DNA of 64,000 bases from Candidatus Harrisonbacteria bacterium (GCA_016214655.1 JACROC010000002.1:67801-131800); one strand, 5' to 3'. Numbered from the stretch's first letter, positions 818-58,555 are shown. The notes: generated from the sequence alone by a model not told the origin. Made by a program: numbers and translations.

Positions 818-821
818 CAAT

Positions 822-2423: not shown

Positions 2424-2439
2424 AAATTGCTTATGAACT

Positions 2440-2991
2440 CTATTTTTTCGCGCGCATTATAAAATAAGGAAGAAAATTCCTAGGCTCGAAAGATAAGTCC
2501 ACTTTTTTAAAGAATTTCTTCAATATAGGCAAAACTAACGGTGTATATTGATAAACCAAAAATATCCCGCCCTTATTAATTGCCGAATAAGTATTCAGGA
2601 TAACTTCCGACCGCTCTTTTGGCTTAATAACAGTAAAAGGAATTCCGGAAACCACAGCATCAATTCTGGGCAGACCCAATTTCTTTAAATCTCTGGAGGC
2701 GACTATTACATCATCATTCAAAACTTTTAACCGATTGTCATTAATCTTCCTAAGTTCAGCGGCAAAATCTTTATTCAGCTCAAAAGCGACCAGCCGTCCG
2801 TCCGCCGACAATCGCTTTAAAATCTCTTTAGTAACAATCCCGTCACCGGCTCCATATTCAACAATATATTTAAAATCCGAACCCAATTCCTTCATCAGGC
2901 TCTGCACAACATATTTGGAACTGACGGTAATGGCGCCAACCTTATAATCTTTAATTACCGCTTTTAAAAAATTAAATCCGCTCATAAACAA
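2440..2991 (-). CDS. Class I SAM-dependent methyltransferase (RrnaAD / COG3963-like)
   Basis: 'VGAITVSSKYVV' and 'EYGAGDGIVTKEIL' resemble the PmtA/KsgA-like N-terminal SAM-binding region. Confidence 0.6.
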   Translation of the reverse strand: MFMSGFNFLKAVIKDYKVGAITVSSKYVVQSLMKELGSDFKYIVEYGAGDGIVTKEILKRLSADGRLVAFELNKDFAAELRKINDNRLKVLNDDVIVASRDLKKLGLPRIDAVVSGIPFTVIKPKERSEVILNTYSAINKGGIFLVYQYTPLVLPILKKFFKKVDLSFEPRNFLPYFIMRAKK

Positions 2992-3044
2992 ATTTATACG
3001 TTAATTAGGTTCTTTATAAAATAACATAAATCCACTTAAAAATC

Positions 3045-3073
3045 AAGAAATTAAAAACCCGTGAATTCACGGG
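3045..3073 (-). terminator. Rho-independent terminator after the 92-aa gene
   Basis: Perfect palindrome cccgtgaa/ttcacggg (3058..3073), followed on the minus strand by a T-run. Confidence 0.6.
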
Positions 3074-3089
3074 TAAACCTATCTCAATT

Positions 3090-3368
3090 CTAATCTCCTG
3101 AAAGCCGGCCACAAAAATGAATTATTCCCTTATTTCTTTGGTTCCTGACGCTAACCAAAATAACATGCTGGGTAATATTGCCGAGGTCCGGCTTAAGATT
3201 TTCTAAAACATCCAACACTTCAGCGCGATTTTCTGCCTGTTCAACCGCGGCGTTATCATTTGGCGCGTAGATTTTTTCAATGGAAAAATCTATAATCTCT
3301 CCCTGGGTTACAAATGATATAAAGCCATATTGTGCTAAATATAAATGTCCTCGATGGCCCTTGCGCAT
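3090..3368 (-). CDS. Hypothetical protein (92 aa)
   Basis: ORF only; a terminator hairpin lies downstream. Confidence 0.4.
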   Translation of the reverse strand: MRKGHRGHLYLAQYGFISFVTQGEIIDFSIEKIYAPNDNAAVEQAENRAEVLDVLENLKPDLGNITQHVILVSVRNQRNKGIIHFCGRLSGD

Positions 3369-3439
3369 CAGAGCTCCTATTTTAAAAACTAAATATAATT
3401 TAAATTAAAACTCTTAAAAAATCAATATTTTTCATACCC

Positions 3440-3468
3440 TTGACCTTATGGTTAAAAGCTGTTATACT
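3440..3468 (+). promoter_or_regulatory. Sigma70-like promoter for the 3523 gene
   Basis: TTGACC, a 17-nt spacer, then TATACT, with RBS GGAGG before the ATG at 3523. Confidence 0.55.
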
Positions 3469-3522
3469 TTTTAAAGCTTAGAAGTTCTTTGACAGACAGC
3501 ACTTAGGAAAGGAGGTAATGGA

Positions 3523-4305
3523 ATGACCGTAGCATTGGTGGCTGCTGTAGTTGCGGCGGTGATTATAGGTGTGGCTATGGAAAGCTTTTCTGCGGTTGTT
3601 GTTGCTGCACTCATCGGCGGCGGAATAGTTTTTGGGGGTAATGCGCTAATTACTTACGGCGCCCTCGCCGGACTGATAACTGGTTTAACTTTGGCTGGAG
3701 CGCTTGCGGTCGGTACGGCTGGATTCTGGCTGCTCGTAGCAGTATCTACCGTTGCACTCGCTTGTCTAGTTGAGAACGAAGAAGGAGCTTGGGCTACTGG
3801 GACGCTTCTTCTAACGCTTCTACTTCTCCAGCTGTTCGGTGACATCAAAGTTTTCACTTCTGCATACAACCATCCGCTTGTCGCCCTTATGTGCGTTGCC
3901 GGATATTTTATGGCTGGAATGGCTTGGGCAATTTGGAAATGGGTGCTTTATAACCGTGACCAAAAAATGCTATATGACGAACGGAGGACTGCATTCCTAA
4001 AGGATAATAATATTACCGACAACACAATACCCGCAGATCTAAAAACGAATTTTGATCAGTGCGTAAACGGAATTGACATTCGTCCGCCAGTTACCGAACA
4101 TAAGGAACGAGTTCTGCGATGGATGACTTATTGGCCGTGGAGCGCGCTTGCTTGGTTGCTCAGCGATCCAATCCGCCGGTTATTCCGGGAAATTTATCAT
4201 CAAATTCAAAATACTCTGCAGAAAATTTCAGACCGGATTTGGCAGGGAGTTGAAAATGATCTGCCGCCACCTGCGACTAGCAGGCGAAGGCGGAATCAGC
4301 ACTAA
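3523..4305 (+). CDS. Hypothetical polytopic membrane protein, GC-rich
   Basis: Several hydrophobic helices (VALVAAVVAAVIIGVAM...). Strong RBS aggaaaggaggtaatggaATG. GC is noticeably above surrounding DNA. Confidence 0.6.
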   Translation: MTVALVAAVVAAVIIGVAMESFSAVVVAALIGGGIVFGGNALITYGALAGLITGLTLAGALAVGTAGFWLLVAVSTVALACLVENEEGAWATGTLLLTLLLLQLFGDIKVFTSAYNHPLVALMCVAGYFMAGMAWAIWKWVLYNRDQKMLYDERRTAFLKDNNITDNTIPADLKTNFDQCVNGIDIRPPVTEHKERVLRWMTYWPWSALAWLLSDPIRRLFREIYHQIQNTLQKISDRIWQGVENDLPPPATSRRRRNQH

Positions 4306-4350
4306 AAACAAAATAGCGAGGTTTTACCTCGCTTTTTAATTTCCCGAAAT

Positions 4351-4827
4351 TCAATCGCTGTTCTTATTGGAAGACGAACTACCGGATCCCTTGCCCATGA
4401 CCAACCCCAACAATAAAAGAAAACCGCCGATCATCAGCTTAGTCTGATCCCACTCTGCCCCGCCAGATACAGTCAAAAGCAATGAATTATGGAGTAAATA
4501 TGTTCCATAAATAAGTGAAAGCCGTCCAACTGCAACACTAACGAGCATCAAGAGTGATAAAGCTCCTCCGCCAAGCAATCCGAGGAGCGCACCAGCTACC
4601 GCGCCAGCTTTTCCTCCGCCGCTCTCGCTGCCGACAAGACCGCCGGTAACAGCTCCGCCAACTGCAAACATTAATGTAGCTAAACCAACCACTAACCCAA
4701 TCAAAGCCGAAGTCACTACATACCACCAGAATAGAAAATTAGTGCTTGTCAAAAAAATCTCCGGCCAATTGGTCGTGCGGAACAAGTAAAGAAATCCGGC
4801 ATAAATGGCCGCCAACAAGATTCCCAC
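4351..4827 (-). CDS. Hypothetical Gly-rich membrane protein; GTG start with an AAGGAGG RBS
   Basis: TM helices and a Gly-rich loop (GGAVTGGLVGSESGGGKAGAVAGA). RBS aaggaggcacaaGTG at 4825-4827. Confidence 0.55.
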   Translation of the reverse strand: MGILLAAIYAGFLYLFRTTNWPEIFLTSTNFLFWWYVVTSALIGLVVGLATLMFAVGGAVTGGLVGSESGGGKAGAVAGALLGLLGGGALSLLMLVSVAVGRLSLIYGTYLLHNSLLLTVSGGAEWDQTKLMIGGFLLLLGLVMGKGSGSSSSNKNSD

Positions 4828-4950
4828 TTGTGCCTCCTTTGATTAGGATTTCAAACGACTATGATTAAAATAACACCAAACAAAATCAAAGTCAATCCTT
4901 ATTGTACATATATAATTAGATTGTAAACACTTTTCCGCCATCGCCTCCAC

Positions 4951-5100
4951 TCTATAAATACCCGAAATTATGTTCCGTGCGGCAACTACGGAGCGCCAAA
5001 TTGCTGGGTCTTACTATGTAAGAATTTGGCGTGAGGCGTAGGCGGCGTCAACCGCTGGAGTTGGCGAACGCCGGTGCCGTCAGGAATATAATTTCGGGTA
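4951..5100 (-). ncRNA. Candidate structured cis-regulatory RNA, copy A, in the 5' leader of the 4827 membrane-protein gene
   Basis: GC-rich island homologous (~75% identity) to copy B at 5827..5957. Hairpins gccaaatt..aatttggc and cttac..gtaag are preserved in copy B with different sequences (compensatory changes). An 18-bp long-range stem pairs 4959-4976 with 5083-5100. Confidence 0.55.
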
Positions 5101-5163
5101 TTAAGACCTGAATGATCCCACCGCCAGCCCGAATGTCGGAAAAGCGTCAACAATCCGTTAAGA

Positions 5164-5775
5164 TTATACAACCTTATATAAGTTATTTTCTTTTATATAT
5201 TCAGAAACGCCCTTAGATAAATATTGACTAACCGGCTTGCCGCTGGCTATCAATGAACGTACATCGGTACTGGAAAAATTTGACGGGTCTAAATTTCTTT
5301 CCAACACCATAACATTTTTAGGCAAATTTTCCGGCAAAGAGATTCCTGGCCGGACAAGCACTATAAAATTAGCTTCTTTATATAATTTTTCGCCATTCAC
5401 CCATTTGGTTTTTATATCATTAAAACTGTCAGAACCAACTACAAAATAAAATTCAAAATCCGGATACTGATTTTCCAATTCTGTTTTAGTTTCATAAGTA
5501 GTGGTCAGCTTCGGACGATCCAATTCTAAAGTGGGTATTTTTATCGGCACCTTGGCATCCTGAAATAATTCCTTGATTAAAATTTCTACCATTTTAAACC
5601 GATGCTGTCCGCTGACACTCATAGCCTTATCGTGCCGGTCGGCAGATGGCATCACCCAGATCTCATCGCAAGGAAATTTTTTAAGGACAGAACGGATAAC
5701 CGAAACATGGCCTAAATGAGGCGGATTAAACGCCCCTCCAAAAATAACTATTCTTTTACCACTATTCTTTGTCAT
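5164..5775 (-). CDS. nadD: Nicotinate-nucleotide adenylyltransferase
   Basis: 'IVIFGGAFNPPHLGH' is the (H/T)xGH nucleotidyltransferase motif of NadD. The internal ATG (MTKNSGKR...) was preferred over the longer ORF extending to 5847. Confidence 0.85.
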   Translation of the reverse strand: MTKNSGKRIVIFGGAFNPPHLGHVSVIRSVLKKFPCDEIWVMPSADRHDKAMSVSGQHRFKMVEILIKELFQDAKVPIKIPTLELDRPKLTTTYETKTELENQYPDFEFYFVVGSDSFNDIKTKWVNGEKLYKEANFIVLVRPGISLPENLPKNVMVLERNLDPSNFSSTDVRSLIASGKPVSQYLSKGVSEYIKENNLYKVV

Positions 5776-5826
5776 TTTATGATTATCAAGCCAAAAATTT
5801 ATTTCGGCAATCTCCGCCGTCCTTTT

Positions 5827-5957
5827 CCTACCGACACCGGCGTTCATCGACTCTTGCGGTCAGCGCCGCCTACGCTTCACCGCGATTTTTCGCTTCGCGA
5901 AACCCAGTAAATCGCAATTCCGTAATTGCCGCACGAAGAATAGTTTCGGATATTTAC
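5827..5957 (+). ncRNA. Candidate structured cis-regulatory RNA, copy B, in the 5' leader of the histidine-phosphatase gene
   Basis: Homologous to copy A. It has hairpins gcgattt..aaatcgc and ttcgc..gcgaa at the positions of copy A's hairpins. It shares the conserved strings cgccgcctacgc, acccag and ttgccgcacg. Confidence 0.55.
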
Positions 5958-6036
5958 ATAAAAAAATGATTGCTTTCCATCGAAATTTCTTTTAAAATAT
6001 AGACGGAACTTAGTTAATTCAATAGGGAAAGCAAAG

Positions 6037-6819
6037 ATGAAATGGCCGCGGAAGCTGATCCTTATCCGGCACGGCGAATCTGCTTATAATCTTATGAAAA
6101 AACAGAAGGAGTCAGACCCGGACTATAAAGAATTCAGGAAGGCATATGAGGAATTTGAAAGAGACGGCTTTCGCAATGAGCTCGCCCGCCAACTGGCGGA
6201 AAAACTGAAAGAAAAATGCGATGTCGGAGTAAGCGATCCGGAAACTCCCCTTTCTCCCGAAGGGCATCGCCAAGCTTTAGAAACTGGAAAAGGCCTGTCT
6301 GTTCATTCCCGGCTTCCTGATGTCATTTTCGTTTCTCCATATGTCCGAACTCAGCAAACGCTCGCTGGATTAGTAAAAGGCTGGCCAAAACTGGGAACGG
6401 TCAAAATTATCCTAGATGAACGCATCCGGGAGCGGAATATCGGCTTATTGGAGATATTCAACGACTGGCGAATATTAAATGTGCTTTATCCGGAGCAAGC
6501 CAGACTGCACGCACGGCAAGGAAAATTTTATTACCGCTATCCGCAAGGAGAAAGCATTGTGGATGTGCAATCGCGAAACCGGCAATGGTTCCAAACCCTT
6601 ACCAGAGATTGGGCCGGCAAACGAGTACTAGTGGTATCCCATCACCTGACTATCCTTAGCATCCGAAGCCTACTGGAACGCTGGACTCCAGAACAATTCA
6701 TTGATGTGGATGAAAATCACTCTCCGAAAAATTGTTCATTAACTGTTTATCGCGGAGATCCGAAACAAGGCACCGACGGCAAACTTTGCCTCGAAACCTA
6801 TAATCAAGTTTTCTATTAA
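6037..6819 (+). CDS. Histidine phosphatase family protein (phosphoglycerate-mutase-like)
   Basis: The 'LIRHGES' RHG catalytic motif sits at the N-terminus. Confidence 0.75.
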   Translation: MKWPRKLILIRHGESAYNLMKKQKESDPDYKEFRKAYEEFERDGFRNELARQLAEKLKEKCDVGVSDPETPLSPEGHRQALETGKGLSVHSRLPDVIFVSPYVRTQQTLAGLVKGWPKLGTVKIILDERIRERNIGLLEIFNDWRILNVLYPEQARLHARQGKFYYRYPQGESIVDVQSRNRQWFQTLTRDWAGKRVLVVSHHLTILSIRSLLERWTPEQFIDVDENHSPKNCSLTVYRGDPKQGTDGKLCLETYNQVFY

Positions 6820-6846
6820 AAAATAAAGGCGCATTTCTGCGCCTTT

Positions 6847-8064
6847 TTAATATTTGCATTCCTCTGATTCGTTTCTTGTATATCCGAAAATCTTCTTAAA
6901 TCTTTCAATATCATTCGAATCTCCCATCGCCTTTGCCAGATTATCACTCAACTTCACCGTGCCGTGGCCGTTAGCTTCAGTAACCTTAACCACCAATGAT
7001 AACGCTTTAAATCCTAAGTCGTTGGTAAGGTTTGTCCCCCATCCGAATACAACATTAGTTCTTCCGCTAAATCGCTCATGGAGTTTAACGATCATATCCA
7101 CATCCAGCCCATCACTGAAAACAATAGTCTTTGTTTTAGGATCAATACCATATTTCTGATAAAACGCAATCGCTTTTTCACCGAACTCAAATGGATCTCC
7201 CGAATCCTGCCGAAAACCTCGCCACTTTCTCACCTGCTCTAAAGTTAAATCCTTAAAAAAGAAATCAGTTCCATAAGTGTCAGTAAGCGCAATTGATAGC
7301 GGCTCGCCATACTCCTTCCACCAAAGCTGTAACACCTTATTATGAGAGTACCGGATAGAATCATCACTGCCATGATAAACTCCAGATAACACCATATCCA
7401 TTTCGTGCGCAAAAGTGCCGATCGGACGGATTCCAAATCGTTTTGCAAAAGCAACATTTGAAGTTCCCAGAAGCTGATCCGGAACCGATCGCACTAAGCG
7501 GCCGATAACGTTATCCTGCCAGTAACGGCTGAATCGTCGGCGCGTGCCAAAATCTGAAAACTTTATTCCGGGATACAGGTTCAAAATCTCGATCTTTCGA
7601 GATAAACGGCTCTGTCCTTCACTCCAAACTCCAACTTCCGACCGCCCTTCCTTTCTAAGTAAAGAACGGTAATAAAGTTCGTTCACTACGGATAAAATCA
7701 GAGTTTCCCACCAAATCGCTTCCGGCCAAAGTCCAAAAACCTCAATCTTGTAAGTAGCGCCGTCTCTAGCCACAACAACTTCCGGAAGCTTCAAATTTTT
7801 TAAGAATCCTAAAAAGTCTTCGGAAAAAATCTTGAGTCCGCGCAGATATGCAATTTCCTCATCGGTAAACCGCAGGCTCCTAACATGATCCAATTCCATT
7901 CTCAAGTCTTCTTCATTGATATATTCAGCCAGCAGAACATTTTTTGTCCGATTTTTAAAACTGTACCTTACGGGTACAGTTTGATAATGCTTCCAGGCAA
8001 CCTGTGCCATCGTAAGCTTATAATAATCAAGATCTAACAGAGATCGGATGATTGGAGTATTCAT
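6847..8064 (-). CDS. pncB: Nicotinate phosphoribosyltransferase
   Basis: 'FSDFGTRRRFS', 'AHEM', 'FRQDSGDPFEFGEKAIAFYQKYGIDPKTKTIVFSDGLD' and 'VKLSDN' match NAPRTase. The start was set at MNTPIIRSLLDLDYYKLTM. Confidence 0.85.
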   Translation of the reverse strand: MNTPIIRSLLDLDYYKLTMAQVAWKHYQTVPVRYSFKNRTKNVLLAEYINEEDLRMELDHVRSLRFTDEEIAYLRGLKIFSEDFLGFLKNLKLPEVVVARDGATYKIEVFGLWPEAIWWETLILSVVNELYYRSLLRKEGRSEVGVWSEGQSRLSRKIEILNLYPGIKFSDFGTRRRFSRYWQDNVIGRLVRSVPDQLLGTSNVAFAKRFGIRPIGTFAHEMDMVLSGVYHGSDDSIRYSHNKVLQLWWKEYGEPLSIALTDTYGTDFFFKDLTLEQVRKWRGFRQDSGDPFEFGEKAIAFYQKYGIDPKTKTIVFSDGLDVDMIVKLHERFSGRTNVVFGWGTNLTNDLGFKALSLVVKVTEANGHGTVKLSDNLAKAMGDSNDIERFKKIFGYTRNESEECKY

Positions 8065-8065
8065 A

Positions 8066-8665
8066 TTAACCGCGGTCTCTAAAGAGAAGGAAGGTTTCGA
8101 TTGAAAGAGAAATAACGCCACTGCGCACCATTTCCTCTACCGCCCTATCTCCGTCGCCTGGATTGATATTTACTGCCCTAGAACCGTCAGAGAGAAAATA
8201 AGTCTTGAAACCCGCTCGTACAGCGCTTAGCGCCGTAGCTTTCACGCAATAATCAGTAGCCAAACCGCCGACATAAACCTCTTCCACACCCGCCACCCGT
8301 AAAACCCTTAACAAATTCATGCCAATATCAGTCACCCCATCAAAGGCAGAATATCCGCCATCATCATTAAGATCCATGCCCTTAGAAACGACGATCGCCT
8401 GTTCTACCTTAAGATCTTTATGAAATTTCGCGCCTTCAGTATTCTGTACACAATGCGGAGGCCACAAACCACCGCCAGTGTTAAAGTGCCTTGTTTCTGC
8501 CGGATGCCAATCACGAGAAGCGATAATTATCCAACCCTTTCGCAAGGCAAAATCTGCCATCCGATTAAGCGGTTCAACCACTTTATCGCCGTCTTTCACG
8601 GCCAATGCTCCGCCCGGACAAAAATCATTCTGTACATCCACCAAAATCAGCACTGCCCTTGCCAT
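8066..8665 (-). CDS. pncA: Nicotinamidase / pyrazinamidase (isochorismatase family)
   Basis: 'LILVDVQNDFCPGGAL' is the PncA motif. The start is at MARAV, preceded by aaggaggcaaagATG. Confidence 0.85.
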   Translation of the reverse strand: MARAVLILVDVQNDFCPGGALAVKDGDKVVEPLNRMADFALRKGWIIIASRDWHPAETRHFNTGGGLWPPHCVQNTEGAKFHKDLKVEQAIVVSKGMDLNDDGGYSAFDGVTDIGMNLLRVLRVAGVEEVYVGGLATDYCVKATALSAVRAGFKTYFLSDGSRAVNINPGDGDRAVEEMVRSGVISLSIETFLLFRDRG

Positions 8666-8793
8666 CTTTGCCTCCTTTTTTCCTTTTTCGAGGAACGTTG
8701 TCATATTACCTATGGGCCACGCCCCTCGTCAATCCTGTTAGAGGCCGCGAGAGCTCACAGCGAGCTTCTGCCTCTAACGGGATCAACCTTACT

Positions 8794-8816
8794 AATAGTG
8801 TATCATGGACACTAAC
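8794..8816. promoter_or_regulatory. Candidate NrtR operator 1 (AATAGTGT-N7-ACACTAAC) upstream of pncA-pncB
   Basis: A palindrome TAGTGT-N7-ACACTA that also occurs at 11052..11074 and 15943..15965. All three are in promoter regions of NAD/ADP-ribose genes. Confidence 0.5.
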
Positions 8817-8902
8817 AAATAGTCAATACAAAAAGCCTTTGCTAAATTAGTGGCGCTTTAACGCGTTAAAGCGCCGAACAAGTAAAACTAAAATTAAAAT
8901 TG

Positions 8903-8925
8903 AAAAAACCCGCGGTCAGCGGGTC
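8903..8925 (-). terminator. Terminator after the ADP-ribosylglycohydrolase gene
   Basis: Hairpin acccgc-ggtca-gcgggt, followed on the minus strand by TTTTTT. Confidence 0.55.
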
Positions 8926-8932
8926 TATCAAC

Positions 8933-9862
8933 CTATTCCAGTTTCTTTTCTAATTTCTCTCCTAGCTGAATCAAGTAATCTCTGCCACATGGTCCGTTCT
9001 CCAGATCTCTTAGTAGAAATTCCGGAAACGAATCAAGTCCGCACTGGATTGCTTTTAAGCCAGTCGCAAGTGCGGCAACGCTATCTGTATCCCCGCCGAG
9101 CAAAACTGATTCTTTAAGCACGCTTACGGTGTCAGGATATTTTGTAACCAGATACAACACCGCTCCCGCAGTCCGCATACCATCGCAAGGAACGCCGTAA
9201 TCTTTATCTGCTTCTCCAAAAAGTAAGACTGGATCAAATTCTTTCATATCCCCGATTGCCGTCCAATACTCGGTAGATTCCGGATCAATAGCCAAACTTA
9301 GTTCCAAACAATAATTAAACAATTTATCAATCGGTCCGACATCGTGCAAAAAATAATGCGATGCAAGCGCCATGCAAACCGAAGACGCTTTTCCTTTAAG
9401 CGTATCGTGCGTAACTGAGGCATTTGTCATTGCGGCTTCAATCACTAATCTTGCATTCTTCAGAAGGCCTAATGGCGTTGCGCGCATTGCCGCGCCATTC
9501 CGGATAGAATTAGTCTTAAGCTTCGCAATCAATCCTTTCCCATCCGACACCTCCGGCAGCGTAATTCGCAATCCCTTGCCATAACCATTCCGTTCATCGC
9601 GCTTATAAGTTTTTACAAAATAATCAGCGAAGTTTTCTTTGGTCAACAGCTTTCCGGACAAAAGCAATTCCGCAATCGCAATGGACATCTGCGTATCATC
9701 AGTATATTCTCCGGCTCCGTTTCCCCATTCTTCTTTCGGATTCCTCTGATATTTAGTAAAATCAAAAACCCTAGGAATTTCATATCTGGTCATAGTCTCA
9801 TAGCGGATCCCGAATGCATCGCCCACCGCAAGTCCCAATAAAAGATTTTGTATCTTATTCAT
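8933..9862 (-). CDS. ADP-ribosylglycohydrolase family protein
   Basis: The N-terminal 'LLGLAVGDAFG' motif is characteristic of the DraG/ARH family. Confidence 0.75.
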   Translation of the reverse strand: MNKIQNLLLGLAVGDAFGIRYETMTRYEIPRVFDFTKYQRNPKEEWGNGAGEYTDDTQMSIAIAELLLSGKLLTKENFADYFVKTYKRDERNGYGKGLRITLPEVSDGKGLIAKLKTNSIRNGAAMRATPLGLLKNARLVIEAAMTNASVTHDTLKGKASSVCMALASHYFLHDVGPIDKLFNYCLELSLAIDPESTEYWTAIGDMKEFDPVLLFGEADKDYGVPCDGMRTAGAVLYLVTKYPDTVSVLKESVLLGGDTDSVAALATGLKAIQCGLDSFPEFLLRDLENGPCGRDYLIQLGEKLEKKLE

Positions 9863-15975: not shown

Positions 15976-16821
15976 ATGATTAACCCGTCAATAAAGTCGG
16001 TTGGTTTCTTTTATCGGCCGGGTAATCCAAAGATAGCGGCCTGGGAAAAGAAAATCTGTGCCTGGCTTAAACAAAAATATCCGCAAGTTAAACTAACCGA
16101 GAAAAAGCCGCAGGCTCTGATTGTGCTTGGCGGCGATGGAACTATCTTGGAAGCCGCCCGGCGATATCTTTCACAAAATCCGCTGGTGGTAGGATTAAAT
16201 TTAGGCCACATCGGTTTTTTGGCATCAGTCCGCAAGCCGAAGGATTTCCTATCCGGACTAAATTTATTAATAAAAGGAAAATACCGCATTACCGAAAGAA
16301 TGATGCTGGCTGCCGAAGTTAAAAGAAAAAATAAAATAATCTTAAAAACCTATTCCTTAAACGATATTGCAGTGCAAAGTCTGCTGGGGGTAGCGGAGAT
16401 GGAAGTCGGCATTGACCATCAGCCGGTCCAATACATCCGCGGCACGGGCGTTCTAGTGGCCACCGCTACCGGCTCAACCGCCTATAATCTTTCGGCACAC
16501 GGACCGATTGTAATGCCAGACATCAAATGCTTTATTGTAACTGAACTAATGGATCATAACGTACCCACCCCAAGCATCGTGGTAAAAAGAAACCGGGAGA
16601 TTTATATAAAAATTTCCGACTTCCGGGAACGCGGCGTTCTTTCGATTACCAAAACCGGAGAAAAAGTTGATGTCATCCTTTCTTCCGACTGTGAGAGTGC
16701 TTTTCCGATAAAAATCGGTGATGAAATCACTATCCGCCGCTCCCCCCGCCTGGTCCGCTTTGCCGAATTCGAACCGCATTATTTCTTCAGAAGCCTGCAG
16801 GAAAAATTCGCTTTTCGATAA
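15976..16821 (+). CDS. nadK: NAD kinase
   Basis: 'LIVLGGDGTILEAAR' is the GGDG motif of NAD kinases. Confidence 0.8.
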   Translation: MINPSIKSVGFFYRPGNPKIAAWEKKICAWLKQKYPQVKLTEKKPQALIVLGGDGTILEAARRYLSQNPLVVGLNLGHIGFLASVRKPKDFLSGLNLLIKGKYRITERMMLAAEVKRKNKIILKTYSLNDIAVQSLLGVAEMEVGIDHQPVQYIRGTGVLVATATGSTAYNLSAHGPIVMPDIKCFIVTELMDHNVPTPSIVVKRNREIYIKISDFRERGVLSITKTGEKVDVILSSDCESAFPIKIGDEITIRRSPRLVRFAEFEPHYFFRSLQEKFAFR

Positions 16822-16823
16822 AC

Positions 16824-16856
16824 AAAAAGGCTCTCTTTCGAGAGCCTTCAATTTTT
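16824..16856. terminator. Bidirectional terminator hairpin (ggctctc-tttc-gagagcc); left copy of a ~50-bp direct repeat
   Basis: A-run, 7-bp stem, T-run. About 85% identical over ~50 bp to 20803..20852. Confidence 0.6.
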
Positions 16857-16869
16857 GAAAAAGAACTAA

Positions 16870-18708
16870 TTACTTTTCGCCGTTCAGCGCAACTTTCTGA
16901 GCCTGCAGCTGAACGCGCATCTGGTCAGCCATCGTTTCAACATTCTTCTTGTACGATTCATCGCGATACCGCCTCTCAACCTCAAACTGCTGTTCCAGCG
17001 CAGTCATAATCAGTTCCGCGGTAAGCGGCTGATAGAGCTTTTTGACAAGCTCCGTCCGCTCATCCCAAGATCTAGTCCGGAATGCTGACGGATTAGTAAA
17101 CCACTCTTCTGGAATCTCAAAATCCGACGCTTGAGCAATGGCCACCTGAATGGCATTCTTTACCGGTCTGCCGGTAAATTTCGGATCTCTGGCACGAAGC
17201 TCGGCGCAAAGCTTTCCGATATTCTCCCAAGTACCACCTTTCTTTCCTTTATACATCTTCTGGATTTCCGGAGAAAACAGCGATGCAATCTTATCCGGAG
17301 CCGGCCTGGACATCGGAACGTATTCCCCTTGGGAAACTTCCAAAAGTCCGGTCTTCTTGAAATTCCGAAGCTCATGCGCGACAAGATCAGTGTAATCTTC
17401 CGTACTCTGCGGTCCCTGGATGATAGCGCGATAGACAAACCTCTGCCTGAGCGCATCATCAGTCGCCGTCGGCTTATTCGTCGCCGCCACCGCAATGTAG
17501 TTGCCAATGTAATTGGTGCCGGTACCGGCAAAAAAGTCCATCAAAGCTTTCATGATGTCCATATCCGCGCCGCTGGTTCCAGCCGTATCTCGATTGCCGG
17601 ACAAAAGAAGATCGATGTCATCAACAAAAAGCAAAGTCAGAGTCGCCGGATCCTTAACCACTTCTAGTAACTGAGCAATCAGCTGGGCGGTTTTTCCATA
17701 CCACTCGCTCTTAATCTGATCGGCACTAATGGACTTGAAATTATACGGTGTCGCCATCTGCTCGGCACGCATCGCCAAATGAGTCATCATCATCCGCTGG
17801 CGGATAGTCTTACCGGTACCAGGAGGGCCGTCAACTAAAATTGATTCAATCAGTCCGCCGAAATCCGAAATCGGATTTTTCTGTAACATTGGATCATAGA
17901 GTGCCAACCGGTCGCACAATCTCCGCATCATAATTGTGACATCAGGATCACCGACAACTTCATTCGGCTGAACCGGCGCCCAGCTCATGATTTGGATTTC
18001 CTTACGATCATCAACCTTCAATCCAGTGACCGCAAAACTTCCAAGATGGAAAGTAGTGTGGTTTACCGGAGCCAGCAATTCCGCCGGAGTTTCGTTCACC
18101 GCGGCTACCGCTTTTACGGAAACCGCTTTCCAATAATCCCTGGTAACCGCCAAAAGATCTCCAGTATTTTGAATCAAAGATACGCCGCCGGTCGTTGTGA
18201 CCCTCAAGGCATCGGTGTAATAAGAAAGTGCCCAGGTCAGGTCAATGGAAACTCCTTTGCCGACCACTAATTCGCAATTGTTGGTATCCAGCTGTGCCAC
18301 TTGAGGATTATTCTTTTTCCGAAGCTCTTTTTCGCAGCGGGCCACGATATAGCTCGCCATCACAAAAAAAGAATAGGCGCTGATAAACTTAGCTTTCGTC
18401 TGAATAGCTGGAGTTATGGGAATTCCCTGATTTTTCGCTTCCTCCACAGCTCTGCGCTGTCCGGTGCGATCCATTAAGAGATCAAAGAAATAGAGATAAA
18501 GACAAGTTGCCTGGCGAAGAATGTAAACCAACGCCAGCTCTTCCGGAAGCGTCCGGTATGTCTCTTTAGGAGACAACTGCCTGAAAACATCTTCAATATC
18601 ATCCTTGCCCTTCACGCTCTTTAAATGCTTTTCTGCGATTGAAGTCCATTTCTCCAGATCCGCGTCAGTGATCGGGTGCGACTGTTTGGTCGTCGGCACT
18701 TCAGCCAC
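16870..18708 (-). CDS. AAA-family ATPase with a large N-terminal domain of unknown function
   Basis: Walker A 'GPPGTGKT', Walker B 'LLFVDDID', sensor 'ATNKP', Arg finger 'RQRF'. GC-rich. Confidence 0.7.
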   Translation of the reverse strand: MAEVPTTKQSHPITDADLEKWTSIAEKHLKSVKGKDDIEDVFRQLSPKETYRTLPEELALVYILRQATCLYLYFFDLLMDRTGQRRAVEEAKNQGIPITPAIQTKAKFISAYSFFVMASYIVARCEKELRKKNNPQVAQLDTNNCELVVGKGVSIDLTWALSYYTDALRVTTTGGVSLIQNTGDLLAVTRDYWKAVSVKAVAAVNETPAELLAPVNHTTFHLGSFAVTGLKVDDRKEIQIMSWAPVQPNEVVGDPDVTIMMRRLCDRLALYDPMLQKNPISDFGGLIESILVDGPPGTGKTIRQRMMMTHLAMRAEQMATPYNFKSISADQIKSEWYGKTAQLIAQLLEVVKDPATLTLLFVDDIDLLLSGNRDTAGTSGADMDIMKALMDFFAGTGTNYIGNYIAVAATNKPTATDDALRQRFVYRAIIQGPQSTEDYTDLVAHELRNFKKTGLLEVSQGEYVPMSRPAPDKIASLFSPEIQKMYKGKKGGTWENIGKLCAELRARDPKFTGRPVKNAIQVAIAQASDFEIPEEWFTNPSAFRTRSWDERTELVKKLYQPLTAELIMTALEQQFEVERRYRDESYKKNVETMADQMRVQLQAQKVALNGEK

Positions 18709-18779
18709 CTCCTCTTTGCACGGCCTTTCTAAAAAAGAGGGGGGATTTTACTCCCCCCGTCCGGCAGATATCGGACAAA

Positions 18780-19379
18780 TTAATGCCCCCGGAGGTGATC
18801 ATCCAGCCTTCGAAGACGCTCTGTCTTATCCGCCTGACTTTTGGCATCGGCTTCCTTGCGCCGATTCTCCAAACCCTGGCGGACGCCGTTCACCAGCGAA
18901 CCGACTCCATCAGCCAAACCCTTCACGATATTCTTCAGCCAAGTGGAATCATCCACGGGCGGAGTCTCTTGCTCCACCGGTGCTGGCGGCTGCTGAGAAA
19001 CCACTGGCGGAACGTTCTCTGGCAAAGCCGGAGGCGTTCCCGAAGATTCTGGACGCCAATCGCTTTGCGGCTCCACCAGCATCATCGCCAAGCGGTCAAC
19101 CAAGAAAAGGCCGAGAGTCAGTCCGACCGCCTGAAATGGCGAAAGCGCCAGCTCGGCGTAAAGCCGGGCTCCGACTCCCCAATGAAAACTGGTCGCCACC
19201 TCGAAAACCAGGGCAACAAGATAATAACCGATCCAGTGCATCTTGGTGCCGAGGATCAGCGGACCGAAACGCAAAAGCGTTCTCCGCTTGCCGTAATAAT
19301 AGCAGACGGTCACCGTCAAAACTGCCAAAGTCACGCCAATAAAAAAGTGCGTCATTACTTCCTGCAGGAACATCGCCAC
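18780..19379 (-). CDS. Hypothetical membrane protein with a Pro-rich C-terminal tail
   Basis: TM helices; RBS aaggaggtggcgATG; GC-rich. Confidence 0.55.
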   Translation of the reverse strand: MAMFLQEVMTHFFIGVTLAVLTVTVCYYYGKRRTLLRFGPLILGTKMHWIGYYLVALVFEVATSFHWGVGARLYAELALSPFQAVGLTLGLFLVDRLAMMLVEPQSDWRPESSGTPPALPENVPPVVSQQPPAPVEQETPPVDDSTWLKNIVKGLADGVGSLVNGVRQGLENRRKEADAKSQADKTERLRRLDDHLRGH

Positions 19380-19462
19380 CTCCTTGCAGCTGAACAGCTG
19401 TTGTCATTCATGTTGTGTAGAACTGACTATATGATAGTACAAAAAAATAAACTTGTCAATAT

Positions 19463-19500
19463 AGCATACTTGACAAAATAGTTTCAGAAATGTTAGTATA
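19463..19500. promoter_or_regulatory. Divergent promoter region with an inverted TTGACAA repeat
   Basis: cttgtcaa-N10-ttgacaa. TTGACA-18-TAGTAT on the plus strand for the 19580 gene. The reverse TTGACA-17-TATCAT serves the 19379 gene. Confidence 0.45.
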
Positions 19501-19579
19501 TCTTCAGCACTAAACAACACGAAGACAACGACGTTTAGTATTAGCTAAGCCGCAGTTTCACACTGCGGCAGGAGGCAAA

Positions 19580-20749
19580 ATGGGAAAGACAACGGACACG
19601 CTTCTAGATGGACTGAAAGAGAGGCGCGGCCAATTAGGGAAGCTTCAGACTGGCGTCACTACAATCACTGGCCTGGACGAATTGGATGTTACTAAAGAAG
19701 GCGGGGCCAAGACTACTGCGCAGGTTCTAAAAGGGGCTAGCAGCAAGCTAGCCGAGGCCAAGGTCTTTGGCGACCGTATGGAGCAGGAGCTCCGCGATCT
19801 CTGTATGGGGCTTGAGACCAAGCTTGAGGAAATCGGATATTCAGTTTCCGATTCTTACCGCTTCCGTGGCACAGAAAAGGTTTGGGCGTTTTTCGGTGGC
19901 CTAGGACTAAAGTCCTGCACTGATCGCGCTCAACGCCTCCGCCTGCATCGGCTCCAGACTCAGGATGTCCAAGAGAGCGTTAAGGAAGTCAATGATCTGG
20001 TGGAAAAGACTATCCGCGAACTTGGAGAGATCGAAAAGCAGTATCTCGCCGATATCGGTGATGTGAAAGCCGGCACTGGCTACAACGCCACTCTGCGTTT
20101 GGTCATCGAAAAGCTAAAGGAGGCTCAGCCAAAATTCCGCGAAGTCAAAGAACGACGGGAGAAGTTTGAAACCGAACTGAAGACCCTTCAGATGGAACTT
20201 GAGTCCGGAACTGTTTCCGAAAGCGAGCGTCCGGCCAAAGAAGACGAACTGGAGGAACTCCGAAAGAACCATCAGAAGGCTTATCTCCTTGAAACCGAAT
20301 TACATGAGGTTATCCAGAACGCCCAACGGGCAATTCCGGAGATTCAGAAGAACCGCGATGCTGCACAGCAAGCAGTCCAGTCTCTACGACAGATGCGCCG
20401 AGGCCTCCTCGAGAAGATGGAGAACTTCCGCATCGTGCTGGAAACGGCGATGACTGCGGTCCGGGCTCGCGCGAAACTCGAGCGTTACGAGAACGTTGAT
20501 CCAGCCCTGAACAAGACCATTACACTGCTCAGCGAGCATAACGTGAAGGTGGCGGCCGCAGCGATGGAGATTGCCATCGAACGAGCCAAACATGCGGCCA
20601 TCAATCCGGAAGATTCCGCCAGATTACTCAATGAACTCACCGAAAGCATCAATACCTACGCTACCGAACTAGCCGCACTGGAAGAGGACGCCAAGCAAGG
20701 CGCCAGGAAGAAACGAGGCACTTCGCAAGCTAACGGAGACGGCAACTAA
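19580..20749 (+). CDS. Coiled-coil protein (possibly TelA-like), GC-rich
   Basis: All-helical, charged heptad-like sequence with no TM segment. RBS ggcaggaggcaaaATG. Confidence 0.5.
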   Translation: MGKTTDTLLDGLKERRGQLGKLQTGVTTITGLDELDVTKEGGAKTTAQVLKGASSKLAEAKVFGDRMEQELRDLCMGLETKLEEIGYSVSDSYRFRGTEKVWAFFGGLGLKSCTDRAQRLRLHRLQTQDVQESVKEVNDLVEKTIRELGEIEKQYLADIGDVKAGTGYNATLRLVIEKLKEAQPKFREVKERREKFETELKTLQMELESGTVSESERPAKEDELEELRKNHQKAYLLETELHEVIQNAQRAIPEIQKNRDAAQQAVQSLRQMRRGLLEKMENFRIVLETAMTAVRARAKLERYENVDPALNKTITLLSEHNVKVAAAAMEIAIERAKHAAINPEDSARLLNELTESINTYATELAALEEDAKQGARKKRGTSQANGDGN

Positions 20750-20758
20750 AATTATCAA

Positions 20759-20790
20759 GCCGCACCAACGGGGTGCGGCTTTACTTTTTA
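20759..20790 (+). terminator. Rho-independent terminator
   Basis: gccgcacc-aacg-gggtgcggc, followed by a T-rich tract. Confidence 0.6.
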
Positions 20791-20802
20791 AAATTTTCTA
20801 CT

Positions 20803-20836
20803 AAAAAAGCTCTCTTTCGAGAGCTTTCTAATTTTT
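20803..20836. terminator. Bidirectional terminator hairpin (agctctc-tttc-gagagct); right copy of the ~50-bp direct repeat
   Basis: Near-identical core to 16824..16856. Confidence 0.6.
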
Positions 20837-20851
20837 ATAAAGAACAAATAA

Positions 20852-22888
20852 TCACCAGCTGCCGGAGGCGCCGCCTCCGCCAAAACTTCCGCCACCAAAT
20901 CCTCCGAAACTGGAACCGCCACCACTAGATCCACTACTTGAACCGCCGCTAGAGCCAAAACTCGAACCGGATGACCAACTGGAACCGGACGAATATCCGG
21001 AAGAATAACTGCTTTCTCTTGCTCGCTCCTCTTCTTCCTCTTCCTCGCGTTGGCGTCGCGCTTCTTCCGCTCTGCGTCGACGAGCTGCATCTTTATCTGA
21101 CTCTGCTCTTTTAACAACATCTGCAATTAAAGATTCAAGCCCAAGTAAAACCGGATAGACAACAACCCAATCAATTGGAGTACGTTCAGTCATCTTCTGG
21201 ACCTTCTGGTATTCCTTTTTTACATCCCCAACCATAGATTTGGTATTTCGGGTTACGTCATTATGCGAAACAATCCTCTCTAACCGAGTAATGCTTTCAG
21301 GATAGTTTCTGATTAACTTCGGGCCCTCTCTGCGAGCTTCAGCCGCATAAGCGATTTCTTTCTCGCCAGCGTCGTTTACACTATTCATAAATCTCTCGGC
21401 GGCAATCAGAGCTGCTAAAGCTGTAACCCAGTTTAAGCCATTCCCCATCTCATTTTGGCAAGCAGACCTTGCCCGTTCATAGTCCTGCTCACCTTCCCCA
21501 GCCTTCTTCCGAGTCATATCAGAAACATCCTCGTGATCAACTGTCTTTTGCATCGCATCCAAAACATCCGGAAGGCTCTTCAATAACGCCCTGCCTTTTA
21601 CCGCAGAGGCAATTTCTTTTTCAGCCGCTTCCGTAATGTTACGCAAGGCAACCTCAACTGCGACTAATGCCGTCGCGGCCTTCAACCAATTCAGCTTGTT
21701 GACAGATTCATTTTGACAACGAAACCGCGTTTTTTCATAATCTGCTTCTGATTTCTTAAGTAACTCACGAGTCTCGGATGAAACATCTTGATGGTTAAGT
21801 TTATTACGAAGCGCTCCAGCTTGGCGCGGCAAATCTTCTAATAGATGTTGCGCGTCTTTCTGGGCCTTACGAACTTTCGCTACATCGCTTTTCACTGACC
21901 CCAAAAGCTTAATCGCAGCATGTAAATCAGCGGAAACCCCCTCAACTTTAGTCTTAATAGTATCAGCATCTTCATAACTGCCATTGGAATGTTCAGACTT
22001 GATTTTATCTCCGCGCTTTTGAAAAGCCATCAAACTATCATGCACACCGGCGATTCTTTGAACTAACGGGTCCCAAACCTCTTGCGGGTGCTCTGACTTA
22101 AATGCACCAAGTAAAACTTCTGTCTCCGACTGATCTGATCTCAAACGTTCGATTTCACTTTCACATTTTTCCAAAAGCTTAACATTTTTCTGATACTGCT
22201 CCTTTAACCGCCTCTGGCGGCGATATCGGGCGATAGCTATAAACCCAACCAGCAAAACTCCGGCCAGTACGGTAACCACAATAAAAGTGTACTTTACAAC
22301 AAAAGCACGGTGCTCTTGGGCCAGCCTTTCCTCGCGGAGCCTTTTAGCTTCGGTAGCGGCCAGCTCTTCCTCGCGGACAGCCATCGGCTTATTGCCAAGC
22401 TCGCGGATCATAGCCCCAACTCCAGCGGTGATTCCCTCAGACATCTTCCCTTGCTTGAAGCGAGGAACCAATTCATCATTAATAATCCTTGCAGACAAAG
22501 CATCTGGCAGCCATTCTTCCATTCCATAACCGGTATGGATGCGCATACGCCGCTCATTCGGCGCAATTAATAACAATAATCCAGTATTCTTCATTGCACT
22601 GTGTTTCCAGGCCTTGCCAATTCCCCAGCCAGGCAAAGAAACCAATTCCTGCGCAAACTCTTCTACCTCCAATCCCTGAAGAGAACCGACTGTGACGACT
22701 GCTATCTCAATAGCAGTCTGCTTTTCATAATCGCTAAGCCGCTTTTCTAAATCCTTTTCAGCGGATTCCGGAATAACATTGGCAAAATCATTGACATAAC
22801 CTGCCGGCTTAGGCACATCGATTGACAAAGCCGAAACAAAATTAACAAAACCGATTAAAGCACCTGCTGCTAGCGCAACCCGCTTCAT
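20852..22888 (-). CDS. TPM-domain protein (YgcG-like) with TM helix, long coiled coil and a Gly/Ser-rich C-terminus
   Basis: TPM domain 'YVNDFANVIP...IEIAVVTV'. C-terminal GSSGGSSSGSSGGGSSFGGFGGGSFGGGGASGSW. Confidence 0.75.
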   Translation of the reverse strand: MKRVALAAGALIGFVNFVSALSIDVPKPAGYVNDFANVIPESAEKDLEKRLSDYEKQTAIEIAVVTVGSLQGLEVEEFAQELVSLPGWGIGKAWKHSAMKNTGLLLLIAPNERRMRIHTGYGMEEWLPDALSARIINDELVPRFKQGKMSEGITAGVGAMIRELGNKPMAVREEELAATEAKRLREERLAQEHRAFVVKYTFIVVTVLAGVLLVGFIAIARYRRQRRLKEQYQKNVKLLEKCESEIERLRSDQSETEVLLGAFKSEHPQEVWDPLVQRIAGVHDSLMAFQKRGDKIKSEHSNGSYEDADTIKTKVEGVSADLHAAIKLLGSVKSDVAKVRKAQKDAQHLLEDLPRQAGALRNKLNHQDVSSETRELLKKSEADYEKTRFRCQNESVNKLNWLKAATALVAVEVALRNITEAAEKEIASAVKGRALLKSLPDVLDAMQKTVDHEDVSDMTRKKAGEGEQDYERARSACQNEMGNGLNWVTALAALIAAERFMNSVNDAGEKEIAYAAEARREGPKLIRNYPESITRLERIVSHNDVTRNTKSMVGDVKKEYQKVQKMTERTPIDWVVVYPVLLGLESLIADVVKRAESDKDAARRRRAEEARRQREEEEEEERARESSYSSGYSSGSSWSSGSSFGSSGGSSSGSSGGGSSFGGFGGGSFGGGGASGSW

Positions 22889-23370
22889 TGGCCGCCCCCA
22901 AGAATCACATCGTCCGGGAGCTCGTTTATATCATCTGATTTTCTCGGAAAATGCTCCGCGAGCTCATGGCCAACACGGTTCACGGCTAAAAGCACGCCTT
23001 CGGCAAATAAACCATCTCGGAAATACTGTGCCATGTCGGCTGATAACTTCTGCCACTCCTCGGGAACAATCTTGGCATTAATTCCTTCATCTGCCACGAT
23101 TTCGAACTTCCGCTCTCTCAGCGCTAAAAGAATAAGTACGCCAGTCTTATCGCGAGTATTCTGCATGCCGGCTCTTTCAAACTCCATTAAAGCCTGAATC
23201 CGGGAATCCAGATAGTCGCACTTTTGAAGAACCACTACCCGGATCTCTCCGGAAGTTTTCTTTTCCGCTTCGCCAACAGCTTCCTTAATCCGTGCCAATG
23301 CCTCTTCAGAAAAAAAGTCAGACGGTTTGTCTGACTCTAATCTTAAAAGACGCCGCAAAGAATTAAGCAT
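22885..23370 (-). CDS. TPM-domain protein
   Basis: 'EIRVVVLQKCD' TPM-like. Operon partner of LemA. Confidence 0.6.
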   Translation of the reverse strand: MLNSLRRLLRLESDKPSDFFSEEALARIKEAVGEAEKKTSGEIRVVVLQKCDYLDSRIQALMEFERAGMQNTRDKTGVLILLALRERKFEIVADEGINAKIVPEEWQKLSADMAQYFRDGLFAEGVLLAVNRVGHELAEHFPRKSDDINELPDDVILGGGQ

Positions 23371-23981
23371 TATAAATCAACCTTCGGAGCCTTCTTCGCT
23401 TCCTCGTCCATCTTGAAATAAGGCTTCACTTTAAATCCAAAAACAAATCCGACAGCATTGGCTGGAAACTGCTTCCGGAAGGTATTATATTCCTGAGCGC
23501 TATCGTTGTAATTCTTTCTCTCCACCGCAATTCGATTCTCAGTTCCCTCAAGCTGAACCATCAGGCTCTCAATTTGGGTATTGGCCTTAAGTTCCGGATA
23601 CTTCTCCATAACCACCATCAAGCGAGAAAGCGCGCTAGAAAGCTGGCCCTGAACCTCCTGAAACTTAGCAAGATTTTCCGGAGTCAGATCTCCAGCGTTA
23701 AGATCAAGCTTCACCTTACCAGCATCGGACCGCGCCTTAGCAACATCCTCAAAAGTACCGTGCTCGTGTTTCATGTAGCCCTTTATAGCATTCACTAAAT
23801 TCGGAATAAGGTCGTAGCGGCGCTGATATACGTTCTCAACCTGAGACCACTTGGCATCAACATTTTGATCAAGTGTAGCATACTTATTAAAAGTAACCAC
23901 AATCGATGGCGCCATCACGACGCCAACTCCGGCTATAACAAGTAACATCGCAACAACGACTCCTGCTACCAGCTTCTTCAC
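23370..23981 (-). CDS. lemA: LemA family protein
   Basis: N-terminal TM helix. 'QVENVYQRRYDLIPNLVN' and 'NYNDSAQEYNTFRKQFPANAVG' are LemA signatures. Confidence 0.8.
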   Translation of the reverse strand: MKKLVAGVVVAMLLVIAGVGVVMAPSIVVTFNKYATLDQNVDAKWSQVENVYQRRYDLIPNLVNAIKGYMKHEHGTFEDVAKARSDAGKVKLDLNAGDLTPENLAKFQEVQGQLSSALSRLMVVMEKYPELKANTQIESLMVQLEGTENRIAVERKNYNDSAQEYNTFRKQFPANAVGFVFGFKVKPYFKMDEEAKKAPKVDL

Positions 23982-41372: not shown

Positions 41373-41519
41373 AAAACCCGCGCAAGCCCGGTATTTTCTA
41401 GTGCTACACTATCATGCAGCTCTATGCTATAGCATAGAGCCGTTCTCATAGTACTATCCTACAAGATAGCACCTATCTATTTTTTAATTTAAAAAATAGT
41501 TCAACAAGCTTCGTCAAAT
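41373..41519. repeat. ~147-bp direct repeat, copy 1
   Basis: Identical over 139 bp to 42401..42539. It contains a 22-bp perfect palindrome gctctatgctatagcatagagc (41420..41441) and a 10-bp palindrome atagtactat. Confidence 0.85.
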
Positions 41520-42393: not shown

Positions 42394-42539
42394 AAAAACC
42401 GCGCAAGCCCGGTATTTTCTAGTGCTACACTATCATGCAGCTCTATGCTATAGCATAGAGCCGTTCTCATAGTACTATCCTACAAGATAGCACCTATCTA
42501 TTTTTTAATTTAAAAAATAGTTCAACAAGCTTCGTCAAA
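42394..42539. repeat. ~147-bp direct repeat, copy 2
   Basis: See copy 1; the only difference is a 1-nt indel at the 5' end. Confidence 0.85.

Positions 42540-56589: not shown

Positions 56590-58555
<1,966 letters not shown>

Follow-up and report, generated by a model that had tools for sequence, protein, structure and literature searches.

A horizontally mobile AAA+/coiled-coil gene cassette bounded by two copies of a predicted terminator in a Candidatus Harrisonbacteria genome

Positions 16871-20802 of a 64-kb stretch of DNA (the window, below) from a metagenome-assembled genome (MAG) of Candidatus Harrisonbacteria, a member of the Parcubacteria within the Candidate Phyla Radiation (CPR), form a discrete, self-contained and horizontally mobile cassette of three genes, bounded by two copies of a predicted terminator. 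The genes encode an AAA+ ATPase, a small membrane protein and a coiled-coil protein, and are referred to here as the trio. The account we favour combines a mobile cassette, a terminator duplication that took place later, in this lineage, and a remodelling role for the ATPase and the coiled-coil protein; taken as a whole it is given about even odds (a probability of roughly 0.5). The features on which it rests are given below, together with the flanking genes that lie outside the cassette.

15976..16821, plus strand: NAD kinase gene (nadK), 281 aa, left flank, outside the cassette (Pfam NAD_kinase, NAD_kinase_C)
16824-16873, minus strand: left repeat; 3' untranslated region (3'UTR) and predicted intrinsic terminator of the AAA+ gene, starting at its stop codon
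16870..18708, minus strand: AAA+ ATPase, 612 aa (PF00004, E 8e-18)
18780..19379, minus strand: small membrane protein, 199 aa (open reading frame, ORF, and its translation)
19580..20749, plus strand: coiled-coil protein, 389 aa, all-helical (ORF; conserved partner of the AAA+ protein across phyla)
20757..20790, plus strand: predicted terminator of the coiled-coil gene itself, 10-bp stem at 20757-20781 followed by a T-run
20803-20854, minus strand: right repeat; 3'UTR and predicted intrinsic terminator of the 678-aa TPM gene, starting at its stop codon
20852-22888 (TPM), 22885-23370 (TPM) and 23370-23981 (LemA), minus strand: right flank, outside the cassette (Pfam TPM_phosphatase, LemA)

An earlier note on this DNA, made from the sequence alone, had described direct repeats of about 85% identity with a common hairpin core on either side of the three genes, and this description holds. 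In ungapped alignment (16824-16870 against 20803-20849) 40 of the 47 positions are the same (85%), and the repeats, which are direct and 47-50 nt long, bracket exactly the trio. Both carry the identical hairpin core GCTCTCTTTCGAGAGC, and the longest identical run between them is 16 nt. The similarity is not confined to this core, because about 25 nt beyond it also align and, when one small indel is allowed, the match reaches the stop codons of the two genes (16870-16872 and 20852-20854). The local alignment score of the pair is 29.5-33, against 9.2 ± 1.2 (maximum 16.5) for 400 mismatched flank pairs and 7.9 ± 1.5 for shuffles. Terminators in general share A-tracts, GC stems, GNRA-like loops and T-tracts, and unrelated ones reach pairwise scores of up to 14.5, which is the case for chance resemblance or convergence. 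With the pair scoring as high as 33, that explanation can practically be dismissed: a 25-nt repeat pattern, with three mismatches or fewer, occurs at two sites only in the 64 kb, where shuffled sequences lead one to expect 0.00 matches, and the similarity takes in the non-structured spacer.

Read on the minus strand, each repeat begins with a spacer of about 22 nt, continues as a hairpin with a 10-bp stem and a GAAA loop, and closes with a tract of five to six U residues; the left stem lies at 16826-16849 and the right one at 20806-20827. The predicted folding energies of the hairpins are -15.6 to -17.4 kcal/mol, the lowest value belonging to the RNA fold of the left repeat (z = -2.9). The repeats are thus predicted to be two copies of a single unit, a 3'UTR with its Rho-independent terminator; one would terminate the resident TPM operon and the other the AAA+ gene of the cassette. 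One of the seven differences between the copies is a compensatory change in the stem, where G16829:C16846 on the left corresponds to A20808:T20825 on the right, and therefore both copies have been kept as hairpins. On the plus strand the left repeat lies directly behind the convergent nadK. The terminator predicted for the coiled-coil gene sits inside the right repeat boundary and is separate from the repeat. Convincing terminal inverted repeats were not seen at the ends of the cassette.

Repeats that are intergenic, palindromic and terminator-like could also belong to a dispersed family of intergenic elements, similar to repetitive extragenic palindromic (REP) sequences or miniature inverted-repeat transposable elements (MITEs), two copies of which happen to flank the trio. 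Other repeat pairs do exist in the window, for example a 146-nt pair of 99% identity at 41373 and 42394. This possibility is very improbable, given that no third copy was found in the 64 kb by the search with up to three mismatches, nor by an nhmmer profile built from the pair, which covered the window and 118 fetched loci. The stems of the remaining predicted terminators in the window are unrelated to that of the repeats, and the similarity spans the whole unit from stop codon to U-tract rather than a free-standing element.

The bracketed genes differ in composition from the DNA around them, as the earlier note had also remarked. The G+C content of the segment is 0.50-0.52, against about 0.43-0.44 for the window, and the G+C content at third codon positions (GC3) is 0.537 for the AAA+ gene, 0.625 for the membrane-protein gene and 0.587 for the coiled-coil gene, against 0.441 ± 0.048 for 56 ORFs of the window. 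No other gene of the window, among 57, reaches a GC3 as high as any of these three. The interval 17001-21000 also has the largest tetranucleotide distance of the 64 kb (z = 3.2), exceeding the rRNA region (z = 1.9). In its other hosts the trio matches the local GC3, and it is an outlier solely in the genome of the window.

The same three genes are found next to each other, usually in the same arrangement, at ten further loci (L001, L002-L004, L005, L033, L034, L115, L117 and L118), and the trio recurs in at least 10 CPR, other bacterial and phage-like loci, each time as a unit, in unrelated contexts. Homologues of the membrane protein occupy the same position in L001, L002, L005, L033, L034, L115, L117 and L118. 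Some of these settings, with one related contig, are as follows.

L001: trio between an amino-acid permease gene and Band_7/SecDF genes
L002-L004: trio between Band_7 and NUDIX genes
L115: trio between rplU and the RNase Y gene
L005: 138-kb phage-like contig with the trio, a clamp loader, an RNA ligase and seven tRNAs
L013: 113-kb IMG/VR contig with the coiled-coil and AAA+ genes, no membrane-protein gene detected

The INPHARED phages gave no match, and PHROGs gave no system assignment. Beside the trio, the Band_7/SPFH genes are themselves outliers in GC3, with 0.51 against about 0.39 in L001 (10357-12249) and 0.76 against about 0.47 in L002 (2399-5538). No tRNA gene was found near the trio in the window, L001, L002, L033 or L034, and the 64 kb as a whole contain none.

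The limits of the mobile unit can be read from a comparison of L033 and L034. These share 85.9% nucleotide identity over 784-4282 and 3882-7332, respectively, between flanks that are unrelated, and the block of identity begins 19 nt ahead of the coiled-coil start codon and ends with the AAA+ stop codon. Direct repeats in the flanks were sought in every locus having a complete module and both flanks, at first 41 and then 3 further CPR-type loci; the second round also took in five loci again, with 500-nt flanks. Against the null distribution of mismatched flank pairs (maximum 16.5), the window (29.5) and L033 (34.5) alone stand out. The repeat around the trio of L033 measures 42 nt, with 93% identity between its copies. 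The left copy corresponds to the 14 codons with which lon ends (Lon_C domain; 'AEPVPARPERTVLN*'), and the right copy lies 57 nt past the AAA+ stop codon, with 3 differences, all of them synonymous in the lon frame, and a stop codon following. Viewed with the AAA+ gene forward, the window and L033 have a common topology, namely the resident 3' end with its repeat, the coiled-coil gene, the membrane-protein gene, the AAA+ gene and the second repeat, and in each case the unit marked off by the repeats corresponds exactly to the trio (3.68 and 3.93 kb).

Two further features of L033 deserve mention. A 17-nt inverted repeat (633-649/716-732) has its 5' arm within the lon-tail repeat and its other arm 66 nt downstream; the duplication in L033 thus also runs into a structure of the resident gene that resembles a terminator. 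The coiled-coil gene of this locus (803-2018) is broken into two ORFs that overlap (803-1756 and 1686-2018); it carries a frameshift and may be a pseudogene or the product of an assembly error.

The age of the repeats can be set against that of the insertion. In the closest relative, L011, whose AAA+ protein has 88% aa identity, the AAA+ gene and nadK converge at the same junction. The synonymous divergence (dS) between the window and L011 is 1.22 for the AAA+ gene and 1.28 for nadK, with 46-50% of four-fold sites differing, which is near saturation. Since L011 has the same nadK junction at a dS of about 1.2, the trio was beside nadK before the lineages split. The two repeats of the window differ by only 15%, and the terminator stem in the intergenic region of L011 is a different one, AAGCACCAT-TGAAAG-ATGGTGCTT; the similarity of the repeats therefore arose, or was renewed, much later. 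The repeats are therefore younger than the arrival of the trio and are not the original scar of its integration. The earlier note had suggested an acquired island with an att-like duplication. Of this, the mobile, foreign and repeat-bracketed character of the block stands, and the idea that the present repeats date from the acquisition has to be given up.

An old junction with young repeats (as L011 indicates) would also be expected if one terminator had simply been copied locally onto the other, through ectopic gene conversion or a repair event spanning 4 kb, with the trio a vertically inherited resident beside nadK and its bracketing incidental. The similar dS values of the AAA+ gene and nadK fit such co-inheritance, no recombinase is encoded, and most trio loci are without flanking repeats. 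This alternative is a serious one, if on the unlikely side. The longest identical run of 16 nt is short for RecA-type conversion. Local copying also leaves unexplained why L033 has the same topology with a repeat of a resident 3' end, and why exactly the bracketed genes are the GC3 and tetranucleotide outliers. Under the mobile-cassette account, a second copy of the 3' end of the resident TPM gene would have come to lie beyond the cassette, in the manner of an attachment (att) site. The cassette may have been re-integrated or replaced where it stood, or one terminator may have been copied onto the other; in the former case, the att-like copy of the resident 3' end would have been made during (re)insertion by machinery supplied in trans.

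Several observations weigh against the cassette account or parts of it. An empty nadK/TPM site was not found in the relatives examined, and the relatives of nadK (two GTDB genomes, 61% identity) and of the TPM gene (54%) have unrelated neighbours, although at such distances synteny is uninformative. The repeats score at background level against the terminators of L011 and L012, a comparison that gives no direction for the copying. No integrase, transposase or other recombinase lies within the repeats, an AAA domain being all that Pfam, NCBIfam and PADLOC detect in the proteins of the trio, and 8 of the 10 CPR-type loci with both flanks have no flanking repeats. The AAA+ gene of L011 is likewise slightly richer in GC3 than its nadK (0.475 vs 0.432), and therefore part of the compositional signal may be gene-specific or old. 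As for the proteins, the Walker B motif of the ATPase has DD in place of the canonical DE, and this holds for each of the 52 family members aligned (FVDDID; hhhhDDID, residues 362-365 in the window), the remaining catalytic and pore motifs being canonical. The coiled-coil protein is without a significant structural or family match, its model being of low confidence (predicted local distance difference test, pLDDT, 64).

L012, which carries the TPM relative of 54% identity, was considered as an empty site and rejected; it has a LemA-TPM-TPM operon without the trio, but is also without nadK.

None of the three protein families has a functional annotation, and the earlier note was right to call the module unrecognised. 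Its outline of the gene content, a 612-aa AAA+ ATPase, a Pro-rich membrane protein and a 389-aa coiled-coil protein, is likewise borne out, apart from the resemblance of the last to TelA. The AAA+ protein has a helical N-terminal domain of about 270 aa, a single AAA module and a long C-terminal helix, and neither the N-terminal domain nor the C-terminal helix matches a Pfam family. Its sequence is 100% identical to that of a protein from Candidatus Harrisonbacteria. Sequence matches in the PDB are to VAT, AFG2, Cdc48, FIGNL1 and Vps4, and the AlphaFold2 (AF2) model (pLDDT 88) gives Foldseek matches to Cdc48, FIGNL1, Rix7, Vps4, spastin and katanin; the AAA module is closest to the D2 module of Cdc48/VAT and to AFG2, Rix7, FIGNL1, Vps4, spastin and katanin. 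Walker A, the aromatic-x-Gly of the pore loop, the sensor-1 Asn and the Arg fingers Arg420 and Arg422, which lie within a Vps4-like 'LRQRF' motif, are kept in 52 of 52 family members. By predicted fold and motifs, it is a classical-clade AAA ATPase of the Cdc48/Vps4/katanin group. Identity with Vps4 or CdvC themselves is not indicated, as the protein has no Pfam match to MIT or Vps4_C and scores 39.7 bits with the CdvC model, against a cut-off of 650, and the gene beside it does not come out as ESCRT-III by Pfam.

The coiled-coil family is small and coherent, matching just 69 representative clusters out of 1.84 billion, nearly all of them about 365-400 aa long and the others shorter fragments. 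Its AF2 model is all-helical, and a conserved helical hairpin is formed by residues 167-209 and 217-306, with the tip ELESGTVSExERPAKE. Foldseek against the PDB returned generic coiled-coil, SMC, ClyA and AhlB matches (E >= 1.7e-3), and profile searches against the PDB and Pfam gave noise of the keratin and tropomyosin type. For the Pfam comparison, profiles were made from sets of 12 and 49 members, and the top 25 families were listed for each. TelA (PF05816), which the earlier note had put forward with a question mark, is not among the matches so listed. PspA_IM30 and Snf7 are not among them either, and with a best Vipp1 match in Foldseek of E 0.28, membership of the PspA/Vipp1/ESCRT-III families was rejected.

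The membrane protein is polytopic and matches no Pfam family. Its conserved N-terminal part, a membrane domain of about 105 aa, is joined by a Pro-rich linker to a charged C-terminal helix, the last residues of which are RGH. Across the family this helix often ends in [RK]-G-H, and the invariant residues of the N-terminal domain are G14, P39, S63, Y73, E75, S79, A83, G89 and D94.

Beyond the trio, the AAA+ and coiled-coil genes belong to a wider family of operons. At least 238 metagenome relatives were confirmed by tblastn, and of the 80 metagenome loci fetched about 60 have a four-gene form in strict order: coiled-coil protein (~360 aa), a middle protein (~375 aa), AAA+ ATPase (~645 aa) and DUF6638 protein (~450 aa). 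Across phyla, about 60 loci have the coiled-coil gene immediately beside the AAA+ gene. The operon is also present in Ca. Moduliflexus, Mesorhizobium, Sinorhizobium, Vibrio vulnificus and V. parahaemolyticus, where its genes are annotated solely as 'hypothetical', 'ATP-binding protein' or 'DUF6638'; a literature search on DUF6638 found nothing. In the rhizobia (Mesorhizobium, Sinorhizobium) it stands in conserved synteny with housekeeping genes (tdk ... fhs). The trio resembles this operon in that the AAA+ protein is homologous over its full length, including the N-terminal domain, the coiled-coil protein is homologous too, and the coiled-coil gene lies upstream of the AAA+ gene. It differs in having a small membrane protein instead of the ~375-aa protein and DUF6638, and as both of these families are absent from the window locus, the version found there is a reduced variant. 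A single locus, L047, joins the middle protein, the AAA+ protein, DUF6638 and the membrane protein. In L114 (S. meliloti Ak57), the interval 8100-9845 between the AAA+ gene and a DUF6638-like gene is occupied by an endonuclease-domain gene and an IS4-like ISRm16 transposase gene.

By its fold and motifs the AAA+ ATPase would be a hexameric, substrate-threading motor, with assemblies made of the coiled-coil protein, its invariable partner, as its probable substrate. The small polytopic protein may be a membrane adaptor of the reduced version found in CPR bacteria and phages, tethering the system through its cytoplasmic C-terminal helix. A bolder reading, which we consider speculative and rather unlikely in its full extent, is that the trio and its DUF6638 relative constitute an undescribed ATP-driven polymer remodeller that operates at the membrane in bacteria and phages. 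A Vps4/Cdc48-type AAA+ protein would then assemble or disassemble filaments of a new coiled-coil type, by analogy with ESCRT-III/Vps4 or PspA, and the genes would move as a cassette without an integrase, inserting at 3' ends or terminators of resident genes and duplicating about 45 nt of the target.

A different function, in anti-phage defence or in phage counter-defence rather than in housekeeping remodelling, appears improbable. The patchy distribution, the variable contexts, the outlying composition and the presence on phage-like contigs would all suit such a role, and the AAA core is weakly similar to the IetA and TRIP13 models. These matches involve the generic AAA core alone and fall far under the curated cut-offs. 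No defence system was assigned from PADLOC-DB v2 or NCBIfam, in which the partner proteins match nothing, and no IetS protease or effector domain (nuclease, protease, toxin) was found in any of them. The housekeeping synteny of the rhizobial four-gene operon is also atypical for defence islands. The suggestion of a defence module in the earlier note is accordingly not upheld, the PADLOC matches being weak ones to the AAA core at most.

The signals predicted for the expression of the trio add three features to those listed above.

18739..18758, minus strand: GC-rich hairpin with T-run between the membrane-protein and AAA+ genes (terminator scan)
19459->19431, minus strand: predicted sigma-70-like promoter for the membrane-protein and AAA+ genes (consensus scan, 11/12 match)
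19470-19499, plus strand: predicted sigma-70-like promoter for the coiled-coil gene (consensus scan, 10/12, TG)

The two predicted promoters lie back-to-back in the divergent intergenic region (19431..19499). The internal hairpin with its T-run is conserved in position in five loci, with differing sequences: the window, 18739-18758 (-); L011, 11-32; L001, ~7935-7960; L002, 7961-7980; and L115, ~5938-5965. As a candidate internal attenuator or partial terminator, it may set the stoichiometry of the products, and it suggests an expression of the ATPase below that of its membrane partner.

A number of other features of the window lie outside the cassette. The 678-aa TPM protein whose 3' end is involved in the duplication has, as judged by eye, a TPM domain and a transmembrane helix, followed by three tandem modules of about 75 aa (pattern 'H[QE]DVS..T+..........Y....C/..Q.E....NW') and a Gly/Ser-rich tail. 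The 146-nt direct repeat mentioned above (41373-41518 and 42394-42539, spacing 1021 nt) represents a second repeat-bounded mini-unit of the same genome, and brackets two minus-strand ORFs, for a 74-aa membrane protein (41514-41738) and a 140-aa protein (41914-42336). Immediately after a full-length 16S rRNA gene (57148-58556, minus strand), on its downstream side, comes an Rfam match to group II intron D1-D4 (56874-56950, minus strand; 37.9 bits against a gathering threshold of 35). Related inverted repeats of 28-132 nt, 72-86% complementary, are found around the ORF at 5164-5847 and again near the rRNA operon, in the following pairs.

4955-5086/5825-5956: inverted-repeat pair
5836-5890/56362-56416: inverted-repeat pair
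56286-56317/56416-56447: inverted-repeat pair

The larger lead from this region is the AAA+/coiled-coil system with its minimal mobile version, the repeats by themselves being a modest curiosity. The system is uncharacterised, crosses phyla, is represented by no fewer than the 238 metagenome loci counted above, and occurs in genetically tractable Vibrio and Sinorhizobium, while a minimal version of three genes is in circulation among CPR bacteria and large phages. The mobile-element biology of the organisms that host the cassette is poorly known, and two independent cassettes with duplications of 42-47 nt from resident 3' ends, and with no recombinase, hint at a trans-acting or unconventional mode of insertion. 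The window also offers a caution, in that a direct repeat around an island need not be the original scar of integration; here it is demonstrably younger than the residence of the island.

Among known systems, the layout of the cassette is closest to that of integrative genomic islets, in which the att direct repeats correspond to the 3' end of the target gene and of which integrase-less, 'cis-mobilisable' remnants exist. As in these, direct repeats of about 42-50 nt bracket a foreign block exactly, one copy is a resident 3' end (the TPM 3'UTR with its terminator, or the last 14 codons of lon in L033), and the same block is found at unrelated sites elsewhere. The cassette differs in being just 3.7-3.9 kb long, without an integrase and without a tRNA or tmRNA target; most of its copies lack repeats, and those of the window are younger than its residence at the site. 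The likeness to IetAS is limited to the AAA core, which aligns weakly to IetA (E 2e-9, 33 bits against an NCBIfam cut-off of 510), the N- and C-terminal regions and the partners being different and an IetS-like protease partner absent.

The ESCRT-III/Vps4 (CdvB/CdvC) and PspA/Vipp1 systems, which have associated AAA+, SPFH and TPM proteins (PMC11237479, PMC10936438), offer a comparison for the proteins, by analogy only. The differences are the Walker B motif DD, the lack of a detected MIT domain in the ATPase and the lack of a PspA_IM30 or Snf7 match in the coiled-coil protein. The likenesses are the aromatic pore loop, the Vps4-like 'LRQRFxxR' in the second region of homology, the adjoining gene for a long helical-hairpin protein and a link to the membrane, with TPM/LemA neighbours in the window and Band_7 neighbours in L001 and L002. 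Should the ATPase indeed remodel the coiled-coil protein at the membrane, the system would be a new bacterial counterpart of machinery of the ESCRT-III/Vps4 type.

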